From an uncultured Nitrospiraceae bacterium (GTDB taxonomy: Bacteria > Nitrospirota > Nitrospiria > Nitrospirales > Nitrospiraceae), in assembly GCA_963846575.1 (NCBI GenBank), contig CAWJWJ010000002.1, forward strand, positions 384,001-448,000: a stretch of DNA of 64,000 nt, given 5' to 3'. This document shows positions 50,421 through 57,676 of this stretch, in pieces; the first letter of the stretch is position 1, and each line of letters starts with the position of its first letter. The position numbers and the translations under genes were made by a program. Below the pieces are notes generated by a model. It saw only the letters and a list, made by a program, of their open reading frames with translations, ran no database searches and was not told the DNA's origin.

Positions 50421-50496
50421 GGGGGGCTAGCTCAGTTGGGAGAGCACTACGTTCGCAACGTAGGGGTCGGGGGTTCAACTCCCCTGCCCTCCACCA
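50421..50496 (+). tRNA. tRNA-Ala (anticodon CGC)
   Basis: 76-nt cloverleaf: acceptor GGGGGGC/GCCCTCC with G3:U70, anticodon arm CTACG-TTCGCAA-CGTAG, TTCAACT T-loop, encoded CCA. Confidence 0.97.
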
Positions 50497-52159
50497 CTTT
50501 CGTTGATGACTTCAACGCCTGTCAGTAGACGATCGAATGTACCCGTGGCCGTGAAACGATAGCCTCGTTTCCCGCCTTTCTCAACGGGCTCGCACACAAT
50601 ATGTCCATCTAAAAGCTTCCTGAGCATTTGGCGGGCAAGAGGAATCTGTCTGGCAAACAGGGCAGGGATGTCTCCCACACGATTTCTTAGTTCCTTGGCC
50701 AGACGATTCTCGTCTACCTGAACCAGTTCGACAAGCTCATCAAGTTTTACTAATTCTGCCAATAACGTCTTCTTCCTTGCTTCCTCATGATGTAGGGACT
50801 CATCTATAGCATCAGTTGCTCTACCGTTTGCGATGTGTTCAACGAGATGATGTAGCCGCGTTTGTATCAAGGAGAGTTCTCGCTCAATAGCGACGCGCTG
50901 ATCAGGAAATTTCTTCTGTTCATTCCTGACTCGTTCGAGAGCTTTGGCTACTGAAGCTTCTAGCACCTGCTCATCTAGCACGTCGTTTATTGCGTGAAGA
51001 ATTGCGGAATCGAGGATATCCTGTCGGACTTCCACACTGTTGGTACACACAGCATGGCCCCGCTTATGATGATAGGCACAGCGATATGCGATTCGTGTGT
51101 AATGCTGTTTGGAGGTTCGCTTGATTGCCACGATTGACCCGCCGCAGGTGACACATTTTGCAATGCCGCTGAGCAAATAAGTAGACCTTAAATCCTCGCC
51201 TGTCGGTCGCGAAATGAGACGGCCACTTTTCTCTCGAAGGTACGCGCATTTGTTACTCAACCTGCGCGCTTCGACCTTTTCCCACAGCGTCTCGGAGATA
51301 ATCTTCAATTCTGGCGCTTCTAATCGAAGCCATTCCGACTGCGGACGTTTTCGTTGCTTACGGGTTCCACCCAGCTGGACGGTTTGAGTCCGATTCCAGA
51401 GCACCACTCCACGATAAAGATCACGGTGCAAAATGTCTCGAAGGGCTGTCGGGCACCACCCAAGAACCCCGCCGTGCGGAGGTGCGATGTGATCTTCATT
51501 TAATGCTTTTGCGATGCGGGCGAGCCCAAGCCCTGACGCGTACATTTCGAAAATCGGACGACGACCTTAGTTTGTTCAGTATTAATTCTTCTCACCACGT
51601 GTTGACGATGTGGTGTCCCGTCCGCGTTCGCCTGGTTACCGTATATGGGGACATTGTCATAGCCAAACACCTTATTCCCCGTTACGTGAAGAGCCTTGGC
51701 TTTTCGAAACATGGCGTCATAGGTTCTTTGACTCGCTTTCTCTCGCTCCATTTCTGCCGAGAAATTCGTGAGGCTGAGCATCACTTTGTCGAGAGCATTG
51801 TCGAGCTTTCGTTCTTGATTGGTCAGATAGAAGAATATGCGCACGCCACTGTCGATAATTTGCTTAAAGGCATAACTTGATTGAATGGCCTCGCGGCCCA
51901 ATCGAGACTCTTCGCTCATAATAAGAACTTGGAAAGCTGGACGTGGCTTAAGAGCATTCATCAGTCGAAGAAAGCCCTGTCGCTTTAAGAATTCCGCGCC
52001 AGACACGCCGTCATCAGAGTAAATATGCTCCTTAGAAACGGTCCAGCCCTTTTGTTCGGCATAGGCAATACCGTGTTCTATTTGACGAGTAACCGACTTC
52101 TCTTCATCACTGAACCCTACCTGTTCAGTCGACTTTCTACAGTAGATGGCCGCAATCAT
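50475..52159 (-). CDS. Large serine recombinase (integrase), about 560 aa, one frameshift near 51555
   Basis: Catalytic IYCRKST, SDDGVSG and ESRLGR; recombinase domain (FGY...IFEMY..G.G...IAK.LN); Zn ribbon CVTCGG...YRC; coiled coil. One added base joins the two ORFs. Confidence 0.88.
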
Positions 52160-52713: not shown

Positions 52714-53217
52714 ATGTCTGTTGAAGGCTCTCTCGGTTCCTCGAACGGTGGACGGCCACTGAGCCAAAAATCCCGCTACGGCGTGCCTCGGTACCGCGTC
52801 ACGCTCGTGCGCGAGGGCCGTGCCATTCCCGCGACCGAGTCCATCACGACGTCGGAGGGCGCTGCGGAGCTCCTGCGTCCCTTGTTCGCCGGTCTGGACC
52901 GGGAGCAGTTCCTGTTCTGTGGCCTGGATGCGAAGCATCGGCTTATCGGCATCAATGTGGTGTCCACCGGGTCGCTCACCCTGGCCATTGTCCATCCCCG
53001 CGAAGTCTTCAAACCGCTGATCCTGATGAATGCCGGGGCCTGGATTTGTTCGCACAACCACCCCTCTGGCGATACCATGCCCAGCCCGGAAGATCGCGTC
53101 CTGACCACACGGCTGCGCGAAGCGGCTGATCTGTTCGGCATTCCGCTGCTGGACCATCTCATCTTGGCTGACGACCGCTATTACAGCTTCGCCGACCAGG
53201 GCTGGTTCGGCGCCTAG
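52714..53217 (+). CDS. RadC-like JAB/MPN domain protein
   Basis: DREQF....LD.KHR.I, VHPREVFK, HNHPSGD..PS.ED and LLDHLI motifs; AAGGAGG RBS. Confidence 0.92.
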   Translation: MSVEGSLGSSNGGRPLSQKSRYGVPRYRVTLVREGRAIPATESITTSEGAAELLRPLFAGLDREQFLFCGLDAKHRLIGINVVSTGSLTLAIVHPREVFKPLILMNAGAWICSHNHPSGDTMPSPEDRVLTTRLREAADLFGIPLLDHLILADDRYYSFADQGWFGA

Positions 53218-53342
53218 CGGAGCAGCCGCACCACCCAGGTCGCTCCGGCGGCTACCAAGGCGAGCCCGATCGCTGCCGTGCCCCAGGCGACCAGGTCGGT
53301 GGCCAACGCGTTCCCGATGTTTTGAATCTGTTGCGCCGTCAT
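53214..53342 (-). CDS. Leaderless coat-like protein, 42 aa, paralog of the adjacent major coat (not in ORF track)
   Basis: AAGGAG RBS; MTAQQIQNIGNALATDLVAWGTAAIGLALVAAGATWVVRLLR*; DL..W.TA.IG.AL shared with 53436-53648. Confidence 0.7.
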   Translation of the reverse strand: MTAQQIQNIGNALATDLVAWGTAAIGLALVAAGATWVVRLLR

Positions 53343-53435
53343 CACGAAACTCCTTTGCCGCCACCCTCTCGATGTTGTCGTAGGATGCGAGAAAAGGAGG
53401 CAGGCTGCTGCTCAGCCCGCCTCGATGGGCTCTTC

Positions 53436-53648
53436 CTAGCCCACAATCGCGCGCACGCGCTTAAAGGCGTAGATCGCCAGGGCCACGCCGATCAGGGCCG
53501 TAGCCCACAAGAGCAGATCAGCCCGCACTGTGGCCACATCCGCCGACACCGGAAACAACTGCGCCTGTGACAGCGCCGGGATGCCCAGGGCGAACACGAA
53601 CGCCATGAGCACGCCCCCAAGCCCCTTGACCCAACCCCATCCCTTCAT
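53436..53648 (-). CDS. Major coat protein (pVIII-like) with signal peptide, 70 aa
   Basis: Strong AAGGAGGTG RBS; leader ending SQA; mature part has amphipathic N-term, TM and basic C-term FKRVRAIVG. Confidence 0.8.
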   Translation of the reverse strand: MKGWGWVKGLGGVLMAFVFALGIPALSQAQLFPVSADVATVRADLLLWATALIGVALAIYAFKRVRAIVG

Positions 53649-53715
53649 ACTGCACCTCCTTGTGCTGTGGTGGTCACGTCCACCCACGCCGCCGGAATGC
53701 TCGCCGGCGGACGAG

Positions 53716-53759
53716 TGCCTCAAGGCCTTGAGGCAGAATCAGTGCTGAGGCAGAATCAG
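53716..53759. repeat. 20-bp perfect palindrome overlapping a 14-bp direct repeat
   Basis: TGCCTCAAGGCCTTGAGGCA at 53716-53735; TGAGGCAGAATCAG at 53729-53742 and 53746-53759. Confidence 0.85.
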
Positions 53760-53843
53760 CTTGATAATCAGACCGACGGCAAACCCGCCGAGCCAGAAGA
53801 TCGCTGTGAAGTAGGTCATCATCTCAATCGCCTGCTGGTCCAT
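53739..53843 (-). CDS. Small single-TM protein, 34 aa (pVII/pIX-like; not in ORF track)
   Basis: AAGGAG RBS; MDQQAIEMMTYFTAIFWLGGFAVGLIIKLILPQH*. Confidence 0.65.
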   Translation of the reverse strand: MDQQAIEMMTYFTAIFWLGGFAVGLIIKLILPQH

Positions 53844-54831
53844 AGAACACTCCTTCGCCGATCAGCTGCATCGATCCCTCTTCATAGACTTCCGACACGA
53901 CGACGCCATACCGGCCGGTGATCTGAGCCGCCGTGAGGATCTCGCCACTGTCCAACAGATAGCGCCAGCCTTGACGGTTCGCCGACATGCCGGCGCCGCC
54001 AAGAATGCGCACGGGGCGTTTGGGAAGTGACGGTGTGGCCACGGAGGGAGCGAACGCGCCCAAGGGATTCACCAGACTGCCCGGCGTCGATGCAGACGGC
54101 AGCGAAGACAATGTCGCGGTGCTACTCACGCTCGTTGCCGGCACTCCCTTGGTGCTGCTTAATGACGACCAGGGCCGCCAAACCATGAGGGTGAGAGCAA
54201 ACAGCCCTGCCGCAATGCCGATCGCCACCCGCGCCGACTTGAAGACCGTATGGCTGCGTTTCTCTTCCCGGATCGCCGCCGACGCGTAACTGGAATAGTA
54301 GGCGTAGATCGCCGGCGAATAGGTCCCGACGAAGGCCCGAATGACGTCATGGTCTTCGGGGTTCCCGCGCACCTTGCCCTGATATTTTTTCGCCAAGCCC
54401 ACGAAGGCGAGTTTTCGAAACTTCACCGTGGCTTCGATGAGCCGGGTCACACCTTGGGACATCTGGCGGAAATCCTGGCTCATGAGCAGAATGTCCACGC
54501 CGTAATGCCGATGGGTTTCGAGCCAGCGGAGGAGACCTGGCTCCACCTTCTGCATCGACCGAAACACGGTCTGGGCTTCGTCGATAATCACCGCCGAGCC
54601 CGGTTCGACATGTGGAAAGGCCTGCAGGACTTCCACGGAATCCTTCCAGATCGTGATCTGCTGTTCGAGGACGGAAAGTTCGATGCCCGTGAACAAGGCC
54701 AGCCGATCCAGATAGATCCCATCGACCGCGATGTAGAGTCGCCGGCCTTGCCGCACCCAGGGCAAGAATTTCTCGCAGATCGCGTGGTAGGACTTGCCCG
54801 AGCCCGGCACGCCTTCATACAGTTCAATCAT
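53824..54831 (-). CDS. Zot/pI-like morphogenesis ATPase
   Basis: Walker A GVPGSGKS at the N-terminus, Walker B VIIDEAQ, HRHYGVDILLMSQ, single TM then Ser/Pro-rich tail. Confidence 0.92.
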   Translation of the reverse strand: MIELYEGVPGSGKSYHAICEKFLPWVRQGRRLYIAVDGIYLDRLALFTGIELSVLEQQITIWKDSVEVLQAFPHVEPGSAVIIDEAQTVFRSMQKVEPGLLRWLETHRHYGVDILLMSQDFRQMSQGVTRLIEATVKFRKLAFVGLAKKYQGKVRGNPEDHDVIRAFVGTYSPAIYAYYSSYASAAIREEKRSHTVFKSARVAIGIAAGLFALTLMVWRPWSSLSSTKGVPATSVSSTATLSSLPSASTPGSLVNPLGAFAPSVATPSLPKRPVRILGGAGMSANRQGWRYLLDSGEILTAAQITGRYGVVVSEVYEEGSMQLIGEGVFYGPAGD

Positions 54832-54914
54832 CGGAGACTCCTCAGATACACCCAGATCCACAGGGCTAAGACGACGGTCCAGGCATAGGCCCACCCGATC
54901 ACGAGCTGGTTCAT
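54828..54914 (-). CDS. Small single-TM protein, 28 aa
   Basis: MNQLVIGWAYAWTVVLALWIWVYLRSLR*; ATGA overlaps with both neighbours. Confidence 0.65.
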   Translation of the reverse strand: MNQLVIGWAYAWTVVLALWIWVYLRSLR

Positions 54915-55186
54915 GAACCCCACCGGACAAATGGAATAGTCTGTAAGATGAATCGGGTCCCCATGGCGCTCGCCAGGATGGCCAGCGCCTGACTCATGCC
55001 CGTCGCGCCCAGCACCCACGCGTACTGATCGGGGATGACCGGCAGCGTGAGGCCTGCCGTCCCCACGGTCGCGAGCGTGCTGTCCGCCGCGGAGAGCAGC
55101 GAATCCCAGATGCTCAATCCCCAATCGGTGAGGGAGAAGAAGAACTCCTGCAGCCAGCAATAGATCAGGGTCAGAATGGCGGTCAT
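54911..55186 (-). CDS. pVI-like (DUF2523-type) minor coat protein, 91 aa
   Basis: MTAILTLIYCWLQEFF...AWVLGATGMSQALAILASA...RFILQTIPFVR; ATGA overlap with the upstream stop; lies between the pIII-like gene and pI. Confidence 0.75.
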   Translation of the reverse strand: MTAILTLIYCWLQEFFFSLTDWGLSIWDSLLSAADSTLATVGTAGLTLPVIPDQYAWVLGATGMSQALAILASAMGTRFILQTIPFVRWGS

Positions 55187-55819
55187 GAGCTGGTCTGGCC
55201 TCCCACAAAGATGATGCGGTACGCCGCAATGGAAGCCGCCGCAATGACCAATGTCCGGAGCACAGTGAAGAACCAGGCCCATTGATTGAAGTCGACGTGC
55301 TGACTGCCGAAGAAGGCGGAGGGCAGCGCAATCACCGGCAACGTCGACCGCACAGAGGGGAACATTGGTCGTGCTGAATTGGATGCTCGCATTGAGGTAA
55401 TTCGCATTGGCCGGGGTGCTGGTCCCGAGACCCGGAAAGGTCTGGATGCCGGCGTTGCTGCTCGTGACTTGCCAGCCGCCGGGTGTTGAAGCCGCCGATT
55501 TAATGGCCGACAGGTCGGATTGCGAATAGTACATCTGAGCCAGGACTAAGCCGGCCCCCACGCCGAGTGCGGCCCACCCAACCGGACCGGCGACCATGCG
55601 GACGGCTACAGAGGCGGCCGAGGGCGCCACTGCAGCGGAGGCCACCTGACCCGCCAAGGCGGACCGTTGCGCGGCGAGATAGGCAATGCGTTCGGCTTGC
55701 GCGACCACCCTGGAATACTGCGTGGCGGTTTGTGCGAGGGATTCTCCAGGTGCCAGACAGAACGAGACCAAAAGGCCCCAGATAAGTGAGAGATAACTGG
55801 TGAGTGAAAGCAGTTTCAC
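55183..55819 (-). pseudogene. pIII-like attachment protein, frameshifted and probably internally deleted near 55348
   Basis: Signal peptide and ~155-aa N-part in one frame; C-terminal anchor STLPVIALP...VDFNQWAWFFTVLRTLVIAAASIAAYRIIF in another. Confidence 0.65.
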
Positions 55820-55890
55820 AATCGTCCAACTCCAAGGCCGGTGAGGAAGGCCAGTAACAGGACCGCCACGAGAATAATGGTGAGATCCAC
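55816..55890 (-). CDS. Small single-TM protein, 24 aa (pVII-like)
   Basis: GGGAGG RBS, GTG start, MDLTIILVAVLLLAFLTGLGVGRL*; GTGA overlap with the pIII-like start. Confidence 0.6.
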   Translation of the reverse strand: MDLTIILVAVLLLAFLTGLGVGRL

Positions 55891-56394
55891 CGGCCTTCCT
55901 CCCTCTGCCGTTATTTCAAGACTTCCAGCCCAGAGAGGTCGAAGAAGACCCGTCCGGTCTGCTCGAACTTCCGGACTTCGATCGAGACTTTCGCTTGCTT
56001 GCCCTCGGCTTGCTTGCAGGCTTCGATTAAGGGCATCTGATCGTCCGGAATCCCCAATCGAAGCACCCCCGGATCTCGGCCCTTCACATAGAGATCCACC
56101 GATCGGTAGACTTTCCCTTCCCGACTCCTCCGCTCCACATAGCCCTGGACCGCTCCCTCCGCTTTGACTTGCATCGTCGTCCCCTCCTGAATAATGGATT
56201 GAATTCGGATCAGCCAAGCGCCTGACCCACACGCCCCGGCCTTCAGACCGGGCTTTTGGTCGAAAGCAGAATTCCGAATCGCATTCCCGACAGCTCAGAT
56301 ACAAGGCGCCCTGTTCCCACTTGCACCGACAGCCTCTCGCGCCACATCCCGGACACATGCGTCGCCAGTAGCCGTTATGAAACTCTAAGGACAT
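55816..56394 (-). CDS. Zn-ribbon ORF (CPGC...CREC) reading through the SSB gene in another frame
   Basis: Two CxxC pairs in the first 40 aa; true extent uncertain. Confidence 0.35.
   Translation of the reverse strand: MSLEFHNGYWRRMCPGCGARGCRCKWEQGALYLSCRECDSEFCFRPKARSEGRGVWVRRLADPNSIHYSGGDDDASQSGGSGPGLCGAEESGRESLPIGGSLCEGPRSGGASIGDSGRSDALNRSLQASRGQASESLDRSPEVRADRTGLLRPLWAGSLEITAEGGRPVDLTIILVAVLLLAFLTGLGVGRL
55911..56174 (-). CDS. ssDNA-binding protein (pV-like), 87 aa
   Basis: Size, beta-rich pattern (SREGKVY hairpin), position after Rep, GGAGG RBS. Confidence 0.65.
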   Translation of the reverse strand: MQVKAEGAVQGYVERRSREGKVYRSVDLYVKGRDPGVLRLGIPDDQMPLIEACKQAEGKQAKVSIEVRKFEQTGRVFFDLSGLEVLK

Positions 56395-57367
56395 AGGGCG
56401 TGCCTTTTCGTCGTTCCTTCAGCAGGGCATAGTGTTTCTGCTTCCATTTCTTGGTGCCGGCATAGATCAACTCCTTCAGGAACTGATCACCTCGGCAGGC
56501 CACCACCACGGCCAGCATCGAGGCAACGGATTGGGCGAGCCAGGCGGCCACGTCATCTAGCCGTTGCTGAATCCGTTCAACCACCAGGCGGCAGCGCTTG
56601 AAGCCTTCGGTCAGGGCGTGCCACCACCCCAACAGCGGCGCCCGATATTTTTCGTAGGATTCCGCTTCCCGCGTCGTCTCGCGGAAATCCACATAGGAGC
56701 GGAGCACCCCCACCATAAAGGCCCGCCAGTCTTCGGCATCGAGCGTGAGCAGAGCTTTGGCGCAGGCTTGGGCCCGGTCTTGTTTGAATTCCATTTCCCA
56801 CCGGACTCCATAGGAGGCCGCGTCTTCCCGGCCTTCGACTCTGCAGTTCCAGTCGTTTGTCATAGACCCGCAGCATGCTTTGGCTTTCCCGGCTGCCAAA
56901 GTAGAGGGTTTCACCGGTCCGGACCCCGTCGCGTGATTGGAGGCTTGGATCACTTTGAATTGCTTAGACCGACTCACGACCTGTCCGGCTTCCACGGCTT
57001 GCCGGACGGTCTCAACTGCGACCGTGGCCTCCCGGTCGTCCAGGGCCACGTCGGTCCGAGTCACATGGCCCTTCTGCGCGAAGATCCAGGCCAGGACCGT
57101 CTTCAGCTTGATCTCATCCCACTGGGAGATAATTCCGGCCGACAGATCCACGTGCACTTCCTTCGGACTGCGAGGCGCACCCGTCCCCAGTTTCCCCACG
57201 CCGGTCTTGCCCTGCGTCATGAGCCGTGCGACGGGATAGCCGCGAAAGCCCGTCTCACTCTGGAACCAATCGCCCCCAATCGTCTTGATGACCTCGTCCA
57301 CGTCAGCCTTCGGCAGTGTGAACGCCAGCCAATCAATCGTGTGAGTGAATCCGCCAGAACCCGTCAT
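56375..57367 (-). CDS. Rep_trans-family rolling-circle initiator; two compensating frameshifts near 56930 and 56836
   Basis: IDWLAFT, TRTDVALDD and RWEMEFK; the catalytic segment GETLYFGSRESQSMLRVYDK is in an alternative frame. Confidence 0.88.
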   Translation of the reverse strand: MTGSGGFTHTIDWLAFTLPKADVDEVIKTIGGDWFQSETGFRGYPVARLMTQGKTGVGKLGTGAPRSPKEVHVDLSAGIISQWDEIKLKTVLAWIFAQKGHVTRTDVALDDREATVAVETVRQAVEAGQVVSRSKQFKVIQASNHATGSGPVKPSTLAAGKAKACCGSMTNDWNCRVEGREDAASYGVRWEMEFKQDRAQACAKALLTLDAEDWRAFMVGVLRSYVDFRETTREAESYEKYRAPLLGWWHALTEGFKRCRLVVERIQQRLDDVAAWLAQSVASMLAVVVACRGDQFLKELIYAGTKKWKQKHYALLKERRKGTPYVLRVS

Positions 57368-57396
57368 TTTTTGCTCCTTGGCTTGCGTGCGATAGA

Positions 57397-57423
57397 CGCC
57401 CCCGTCTTACCAAGTCGGGGGCG
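57397..57423 (-). other. Predicted double-strand origin (nick-site hairpin)
   Basis: Minus strand CGCCCCCG-ACTTGGTAAGA-CGGGGGCG, 30 nt upstream of rep; resembles the C-run/TAA/G-run nick hairpins of Rep_trans/MOBT enzymes. Confidence 0.7.
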
Positions 57424-57676
57424 GGGTCGGCTGCGCGCGCCGCCGGCTGGCGCCGCCTTGCGCGCTGCGCGATCCCGTCTTTCTCCCGGCTTCGACAAAA
57501 GACGGACCATTCCCTTTGGCCTGCAGCGCTTCCTTGACGCGTTCAAGATCGAAACGGACGAACCGACAGAAGCGATCAACCGGAATCTCGCCTTTGCGGT
57601 AAGCGCGGCGGATCGACTTCGGGCTGACTTTGAGGACGGCGGCCAACTCATCGACGGTTAACCATGTTTGTTCCAT
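57407..57676 (-). CDS. Xis-like/HTH_17 DNA-binding protein
   Basis: WLTVDELAAVLKVSPKSIRRAYRKGEIP...VRFD; AAGGAG RBS. Confidence 0.85.
   Translation of the reverse strand: MEQTWLTVDELAAVLKVSPKSIRRAYRKGEIPVDRFCRFVRFDLERVKEALQAKGNGPSFVEAGRKTGSRSAQGGASRRRAQPTPPPTW

Follow-up and report, generated by a model that had tools for sequence, protein, structure and literature searches.

Why does an inovirus prophage carry two tandem coat-like genes, one with a signal peptide and one without, and what could the second contribute? The question is raised by a stretch of 64,000 nucleotides from an uncultured Nitrospiraceae bacterium, hereafter the window, in which a sequence-only reading had described two such ORFs on the minus strand; our analysis agrees with it on their coordinates, lengths and ribosome-binding sites. 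Gene A (53436..53648, minus strand, with its ATG at 53648 and its stop codon ending at 53436) codes for a 70-aa procoat composed of a 29-aa leader and a 41-aa mature coat, likely the pVIII of the element, and is preceded by a ribosome-binding site that is strong by predicted pairing (AAGGAGGTG, 53653..53661, minus strand). Gene B (53214..53342, minus strand, ATG at 53342, stop codon ending at 53214) codes for a 42-aa leaderless paralog of the coat, a single helix resembling the Pf3 coat, and its ribosome-binding site, AAGGAG (53350..53355, minus strand), is predicted to be weaker than that of A. A stem scan located a hairpin (11-bp stem, 53423-53397) with a short U-tract between the two genes (53389..53423, minus strand).

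The A/B pair belongs to an inovirus prophage of a Nitrospira type adjoining a tRNA-Ala gene at 50421-50496. A pI/Zot ATPase, a rolling-circle Rep and short single-helix structural genes place the element among the inoviruses (Tubulavirales), and its named relatives are nearly all from Nitrospira or Nitrospirota. Along the minus strand, an HTH regulator is followed by a Rep_trans rolling-circle initiator (56375..57367; Pfam PF02486, E 1e-21), a Cys-rich ORF, a likely pV-type single-stranded DNA-binding protein (55911..56174; phrog_378, E 0.07, and gene position), a 24-aa leaderless membrane peptide that is likely the pVII equivalent (55816..55890; profile match to M13 pVII), a broken pIII-like gene (55183..55819), a pVI/Ace-like minor coat gene (54911..55186; phrog_306, E 4.6e-9), a pI/Zot-family assembly ATPase (53824..54831; Pfam PF05707, E 2e-29), a 34-aa leaderless membrane peptide that is likely the pIX equivalent (53739..53843; weak match), A and B. 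The labels pVII, pIX, pV and pIII were assigned by position and weak matches. The resulting order from 53214 to 57673 (minus strand), VII-III-VI-I-IX-VIII-B, is rearranged, with the coat genes located 3′ of the ATPase gene and the pVII- and pIX-like genes apart from each other; no secretin gene was noted in this module and no attachment-site repeat was identified for the element. Beyond B lie a RadC-like JAB gene (52714..53217, plus strand) and a serine recombinase that is split into two ORFs (region 50475-52159). The RadC-like gene, a neighbour outside the coat module, is convergent with B, the stop codons of the two overlapping; it faces the module in 65 of the 68 full-span loci and is missing from the most distant elements.

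In the source genome, the module is present in four copies in which B is 95-100% identical, and a decayed solo remnant of B is found outside the window (G000:C2:463349-463468; 60% identity, no in-frame start codon, no phage neighbours). Because the pIII-like gene has lost about 630 nt through an internal deletion relative to the other copies of this genome, the copy in the window is probably defective on its own, with A and B intact. Frameshifts also occur in the other module copies and may reflect decay or assembly errors. Three further Rep_trans genes of this genome, with HTH genes beside them but lacking a coat match (G000 C2:524615-525557, C2:130722-131664 and C1:849827-850768), belong to other small mobile elements.

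A 42-codon gene such as B is easily overlooked by gene callers. Forty distinct close DNA copies of B gave a dS of 0.59 and a dN of 0.038 (dN/dS 0.064); variable columns were distributed 12/6/38 over the three codon positions, the third position varying in 38 of the 42 codons, and the ratios obtained in the other five frames ranged from 0.17 to 7.8. Two further lineages yielded dN/dS values of 0.107 (23 sequences) and 0.089 (16 sequences). To judge by these substitution patterns, B is a real coding gene under strong purifying selection. We considered whether B might have arisen by chance or as a shadow of the convergent radC gene and rejected this, the two genes overlapping at their stop codons only and B being kept in elements without radC (L239 and L240). 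Among public runs, only three contained 5-6% of the sampled words; the contigs assembled from them, which derive from relatives, covered all 30 bins including A and B but were given no weight, as contigs can neither show transcription nor rank genes.

We analyzed the retention of B in loci chosen by coat A alone, which avoids circularity. The 67 loci of one coat A search and the 30 best-scoring loci of another gave 73 non-duplicate loci, 71 of which were assessable, two being too short. B was located downstream of A in all 71, intact in 69 and damaged in two, one of which (L140) has lost the start region of B as judged by eye. The sequence-only reading had offered itself for refutation by a second gene that is interrupted or poorly conserved in homologous elements; instead, B is intact in 69/71 assessable loci with a dN/dS of 0.06-0.11. 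The loci that span the whole structural block (n = 68) all contain the 34-aa gene; the 24-aa gene and B were each found in 67, and 66 loci have the complete set of four small genes. Where B was not found, the bases at its expected position are withheld, so that this locus was not assessable. More distant metagenomic elements without radC retain the block of pI, 34-aa gene, A, hairpin and B. As these loci are kin, the 71 loci, like the 108 distinct A/B pairs considered below, reflect long retention and not independent events. The broad B profile matched 25 of 401 genomes of the phylum, representing nine genera of one family, and B was not found outside that family with this profile in these genomes; two weak out-of-family matches proved on inspection to be a chance match and a remnant. 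The coat profile matched 70 of the 371 family genomes searched, and one genome (G454) contains five B genes. A tblastn search of 50,697 phage records returned no match to B, and no viral contig was found for a divergent B subgroup.

The relationship between A and B had been proposed from two short segments, which align with 9/14 identities (E 4e-4), a score reached by 1/5000 full shuffles and 5/5000 segment-wise shuffles. In a comparison that took in nine reference phages, the A/B pair of the window (z 4.8) was no more alike than ORF58 and the coat of Pf3 (5.0), ORF83 and the coat of Pf1 (4.2) or the corresponding pair of Dulem virus 54 (4.3), so the paralogy rests on family profiles and on more divergent Nitrospira-type pairs, which gave z values of 5.8, 7.5 and 8.9. 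Alignment of the B and mature A family profiles using hhalign gave 95.6% (E 1e-8, 31 columns), against 0.5% for B and the 34-aa family and 0.06% for B and the 24-aa family; since B matches neither of the other small genes, the relationship is specific to A. Together with the divergent pairs, this confirms the proposed tandem of paralogous coat-like genes. The broad B profile also detects A genes, with E values down to 9e-9 per genome, and the common columns comprise an invariant Asp and Trp, a Gly, an Ile-Gly, an Ala-Leu pattern and a hydrophobic-basic end, in proteins that are about 30% identical. A tree of 26 pairs separated all A from all B by one branch with 99/100 support (47 columns, rough supports), and the A and B distances are correlated (Mantel r 0.84, 0/2000 permutations), partly through shared descent. 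As judged from their sequences, A and B arose by a single split that predates the sampled elements. Pf3 fell on the B side of the tree as a long branch, and its placement was not used.

All 84 distinct A proteins carry leaders of 21-39 aa ending in A/S/T-x-Ala, with Ala at −1 and A, S or T at −3 in 84/84 and a basic n-region in 83/84, as established by counting motifs rather than with a signal-peptide predictor; this motif count supports the claim of a signal peptide followed by a 41-aa mature coat. The AlphaFold model of mature A has an extended N-terminus followed by a helix, and a PDB profile search with A gave chance-level matches only. B proteins are 37-51 aa long, mostly 42-51, and leaderless in 77 of 78. 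Their N-terminal part is net negative in 77/78, which suits N-out insertion without a leader, and their C-terminal tail has a net basic charge of 2 in 74/78 (1-3 over all 78), compared with 3-4 in all 84 A proteins. The length from the Asp to the C-terminus is 27-29 residues in B and 27-28 in A; 14/15 and 18/19 residues precede the Asp of A/B in the two commonest patterns (50/73), but other lineages depart from them and this agreement in length was not used. B is the slimmer of the two, with 9.7 Gly, Ala or Ser out of 19 (5.5 in A) and a mean helix side-chain volume of 120 versus 142 cubic angstroms in A, and its two basic residues are in a shifted register, a near-invariant Trp sitting where A has its basic cluster. 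AlphaFold models B as a single continuous helix from residue 3 to 41 (pLDDT 95.8). With this lone-helix query, Foldseek found no match and a VIA search returned generic helices only (Z ≤ 5.7).

The position and signals of the two genes bear directly on dose. The sequence-only reading had described a weak hairpin with a T-run that could set their stoichiometry. The stem is in fact strong (11 bp, −22 kcal/mol or lower) and it is the U-tract that is weak, but the idea of a stoichiometry device is supported: the best hairpin found by scanning the spacer reaches −22 kcal/mol or better in 108/108 distinct pairs, and against dinucleotide shuffles z is −2 or lower for the region after A in 17 of 18 picked loci, compared with 4 of 18 for the region after B. 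Hairpin sequences differ completely between lineages. Because the U-tract behind the stem is short or absent in several of them, the hairpin is likely a leaky terminator or an mRNA-stabilising stem. The Shine-Dalgarno sequence of A is predicted to pair more strongly than that of B in 108/108 pairs (means of −15.9 and −9.4 kcal/mol), and in each of the three lineages A shows less synonymous divergence than B, as expected for a more highly expressed gene. On the basis of its position before the hairpin, its stronger predicted pairing and its lower synonymous divergence, A is likely the major coat and B its low-dose partner. B has neither mark of a major coat gene, namely a location before the terminator and the strongest ribosome-binding site of the pair, and its location behind the hairpin, together with the weaker predicted site in every pair, speaks against a role as a 1:1 co-major coat. 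No sigma-70-type promoter was found between A and B. In M13 and Pf3, the gene behind the post-coat hairpin is a large pIII-type gene, and likewise in Pf1 after the annotated terminator.

Among known coats, B most resembles that of Pf3 (ORF44; 1IFP; PF05356, Phage_Coat_B), also leaderless, of comparable size (42-47 versus 44 aa) and made of a single helix with an acidic N-terminal and a basic C-terminal part. The Pf3 coat was the sole PDB sequence match of both B profiles (E 0.27 and 0.09), and hhalign scored it at 85.8% with B (0/1000 shuffles) and at 17.9% with A. Atlas gives the PF05356 cluster at 0.91 for B; individual database matches are weak, PF05356 being found in 6 of 25 B members (best E 4e-4). 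The invariant Asp of B aligns with Asp18 of the Pf3 coat and its C-terminal Trp with Trp38; a simulation study, in the excerpt available to us, describes Asp18 as touching YidC (PMC9421054). Unlike the Pf3 coat gene, which is the sole one and precedes the hairpin, B is a second copy located behind the hairpin beside a signal-bearing coat.

These features are those of a pVIII-type protein, B combining homology to known coats with a single helix that has an acidic N-terminus, a hydrophobic middle and a basic C-terminus. By contrast, B departs from pVII and pIX: it is leaderless, yet mostly 42-51 aa long versus about 32 aa, and its profiles score 14-16 bits on the Pf3 coat versus 0.3-3.1 bits on pVII/pIX. 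Those two positions have other candidates. Tested against five M13 and Pf3 reference proteins, the 24-aa family scored best on M13 pVII (hhalign 64%, 12/1000 shuffles) and the 34-aa family on pIX (19/1000 shuffles, hhalign 2.8%); PDB profile searches with both families gave chance-level results only, with no match to pVII or pIX. The Nitrospira element resembles the Ff phages (M13/f1), in which pVIII forms the shaft, pVII/pIX the round tip and pIII/pVI the pointed tip, in that A has a cleaved leader, a strong ribosome-binding site and a hairpin after its stop codon, and in that pIII-, pVI-, pVII- and pIX-like genes are present. It differs from them by its rearranged order, by the lack of any noted secretin gene and by the additional coat paralog in the post-hairpin slot. 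Since there are already candidates for the four minor protein genes, the likeliest reading is that B represents a sixth gene of virion type, the pIX assignment being the weak link in this argument.

What would a sixth virion protein do? We tentatively propose, at a little under even likelihood, that B is a low-copy capsid subunit for the first coat layer or layers next to a tip cap. Transcripts would mostly stop or be trimmed at the hairpin, leaving B well below A; B would insert N-out into the inner membrane without a leader, like the Pf3 coat through YidC; and the pI machine would pack a few B helices where the coat bends and contacts cap proteins instead of coat, with the neighbourhood of the pVII/pIX-like round tip as the likeliest place, before the shaft is built by A. 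The Gly/Ala-rich helix of B and its two shifted basic residues would suit such a tighter site. A duplicate specialised for the first layer would explain retention, constraint, low dose and shape together. Other observations count against this proposal. M13 fills its first coat layer with ordinary pVIII. B itself could be the pIX-role protein, given the weak pIX match of the 34-aa family, and a decent ribosome-binding site behind a short U-tract could raise B above 5-15 copies per particle. Moreover, similarity between the coat and a neighbouring minor protein is also seen in Pf3, Pf1 and Dulem virus 54 (z 4.2-5.0). That a niche for a specialised coat exists is nonetheless suggested by M13, whose first pVIII layer is described, in passages of PMC10480500, as bending by about 34 degrees versus 21 in a completely different contact environment, and whose cap proteins are, according to an excerpt of PMC10175506, leaderless single helices in five copies.

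The end-cap adaptor was one of three roles put forward in the sequence-only reading and fits best; a low-fraction mosaic is possible, and a dominant-negative coat is disfavoured. In the mosaic, B would be scattered at low fraction along the whole shaft and tune DNA packing, length, flexibility or surface, which we consider unlikely, if a serious contender. It would account for the mature-coat length of B, the D, W, G, I, G, A, L register in common with A and the basic tail, and a leaky hairpin combined with a usable ribosome-binding site would yield B at the percent level. Engineered gp8 display particles, as presented in part of PMC4276942, do co-assemble two gene VIII products, but these mosaics are artificial and made of near-identical subunits, unlike A and B, which diverged long ago. 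B displays no extra domain, and the predicted lattice and DNA-contact positions differ, with Y/F, K and R in A versus small residues and the invariant W in B. Loss-free retention and strict conservation would also better suit an essential, fixed site such as the proposed layer next to the cap.

Rather less likely is a B that stays in the inner membrane and off the particle, where it would assist assembly, chaperone the coat or exclude superinfecting phages. Such functions would be compatible with a lone membrane helix that lacks a leader and has many small residues, and the coat duplicate of Stenotrophomonas phage phiSMA7, whose acidic tail is unsuited to DNA, indicates that coat copies may have roles outside the shaft. 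Unlike that duplicate, B retains coat length and a short basic tail; exclusion in particular is difficult to reconcile with the four related elements that coexist in the source genome and the five B genes of G454.

We consider it improbable that B is the true pIX-role cap protein, with another job for the 34-aa gene and no additional slot in the capsid. The resemblance of the 34-aa family to M13 pIX is weak, ORF58 of Pf3 and ORF83 of Pf1 resemble their own coats, and in VGJphi the coat gene is followed by a small gene for a putative minor capsid protein, all of which favour this assignment. However, the 34-aa gene is present in 68/68 full-span loci directly before the coat gene, as is gene IX in M13, B profiles score 14-16 bits on the Pf3 major coat versus 1-3 on pIX, and the family would still have four conserved small membrane genes.

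Still more improbable is a dominant-negative coat that poisons the assembly of rival filamentous phages: a coat-like helix changed at its lattice positions might conceivably stall a foreign filament, but B shows no loss in 71 assessable loci, a dN/dS of at most 0.11 and co-divergence with its own A, and hosts carry coexisting elements with near-identical A that B would poison as well. Finally, B as the full major coat of a second, Pf3-like particle type made under other conditions would fit its closer match to the Pf3 coat (85.8% versus 17.9% for A) but is scarcely credible, given that the search for a sigma-70-type promoter between the genes found none, that the ribosome-binding site of B is the weaker in 108/108 pairs and that none of the loci examined lacks A while having B at the coat position.

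There is also a broader picture that we hold to be somewhat more probable than its negation. The family as a whole would build a six-protein capsid with two true coat paralogs, one M13-like and leader-cleaved, the other Pf3-like and leaderless, each with its own route into the membrane and in a ratio set by the hairpin. Such an inovirus would have two coats by nature and would preserve an intermediate stage in the derivation of minor cap proteins from the major coat, and of coats without a leader from coats with one; leader-bearing B forms (L104 and P0031) and the short 'MVLA/MAWA' stubs would mark steps of the loss. We tentatively infer that B lost the leader of a leader-bearing ancestor. At locus L104 (1660-1860, minus strand), B occurs as a 67-aa form with an apparent leader. 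The 64-aa B homolog P0031 has an apparent leader followed by a TVATDL start, which 47-aa B proteins also have after a four-residue stub, and the B-type protein P0035 likewise has an apparent signal peptide. These three proteins may represent stages in the loss of the leader.

Inoviruses are annotated on the model of the five-protein Ff capsid, a plan that a widespread family with a second, assembly-competent-looking coat would extend, and such elements are common in nitrifying bacteria, judging from the coat profile matches in 70 of 371 family genomes. Such a family would also allow a test of whether duplication of the major coat gives rise to cap proteins. The A/B pair lets coat insertion with and without a leader be compared naturally, side by side within the same cell, and B, if it is a tip or minority subunit, would be a candidate for a new display position. 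In the literature searched, which left most subscription papers outside its scope, we found no account of coat duplication in an inovirus or of the present family; the main text of Roux et al. 2019 (PMC6813254), in the sections available to us, does not mention Nitrospira or coat duplication.

The rule of one major coat per genome, on which the sequence-only reading relied, has exceptions, of which phiSMA7 provides a clear coat duplicate. ORF89 of this phage (HG007973, "putative capsid protein") duplicates its 44-aa coat-like ORF (z 21, 0/1000 shuffles), but a long acidic tail replaces the basic DNA-facing end, whereas B is unextended and basic. Near position 2774 of the phiSMA7 record (L263), the 44-aa coat-like ORF is unannotated, and an acidic, Cys-containing ORF45 in an overlapping region is labelled putative capsid. 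Orf5 of Neisseria phage NgoPhi6, a structural protein encoded after the coat gene orf4, has a limited coat-like C-terminal end and is reported in the filament according to excerpts of PMC7561177; unlike B, a bare coat-length helix behind a hairpin, it is far larger and described there as fusing with Orf4. Coat duplication is recurrent in inoviruses, as ORF89 of phiSMA7 and a further coat-like gene in four Nitrospiraceae loci indicate. Particular to the present case is an unextended, Pf3-like copy with a basic tail that the whole family keeps next to a coat with a leader. In the four Nitrospiraceae loci (L103:1827-2024, minus strand, L264, L265 and L266), the further coat-like gene lies between pVI and pI; three of these genes have acidic tails like that of ORF89, one has a basic tail and one an apparent leader. 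L103 and L266 have three coat paralogs per element.
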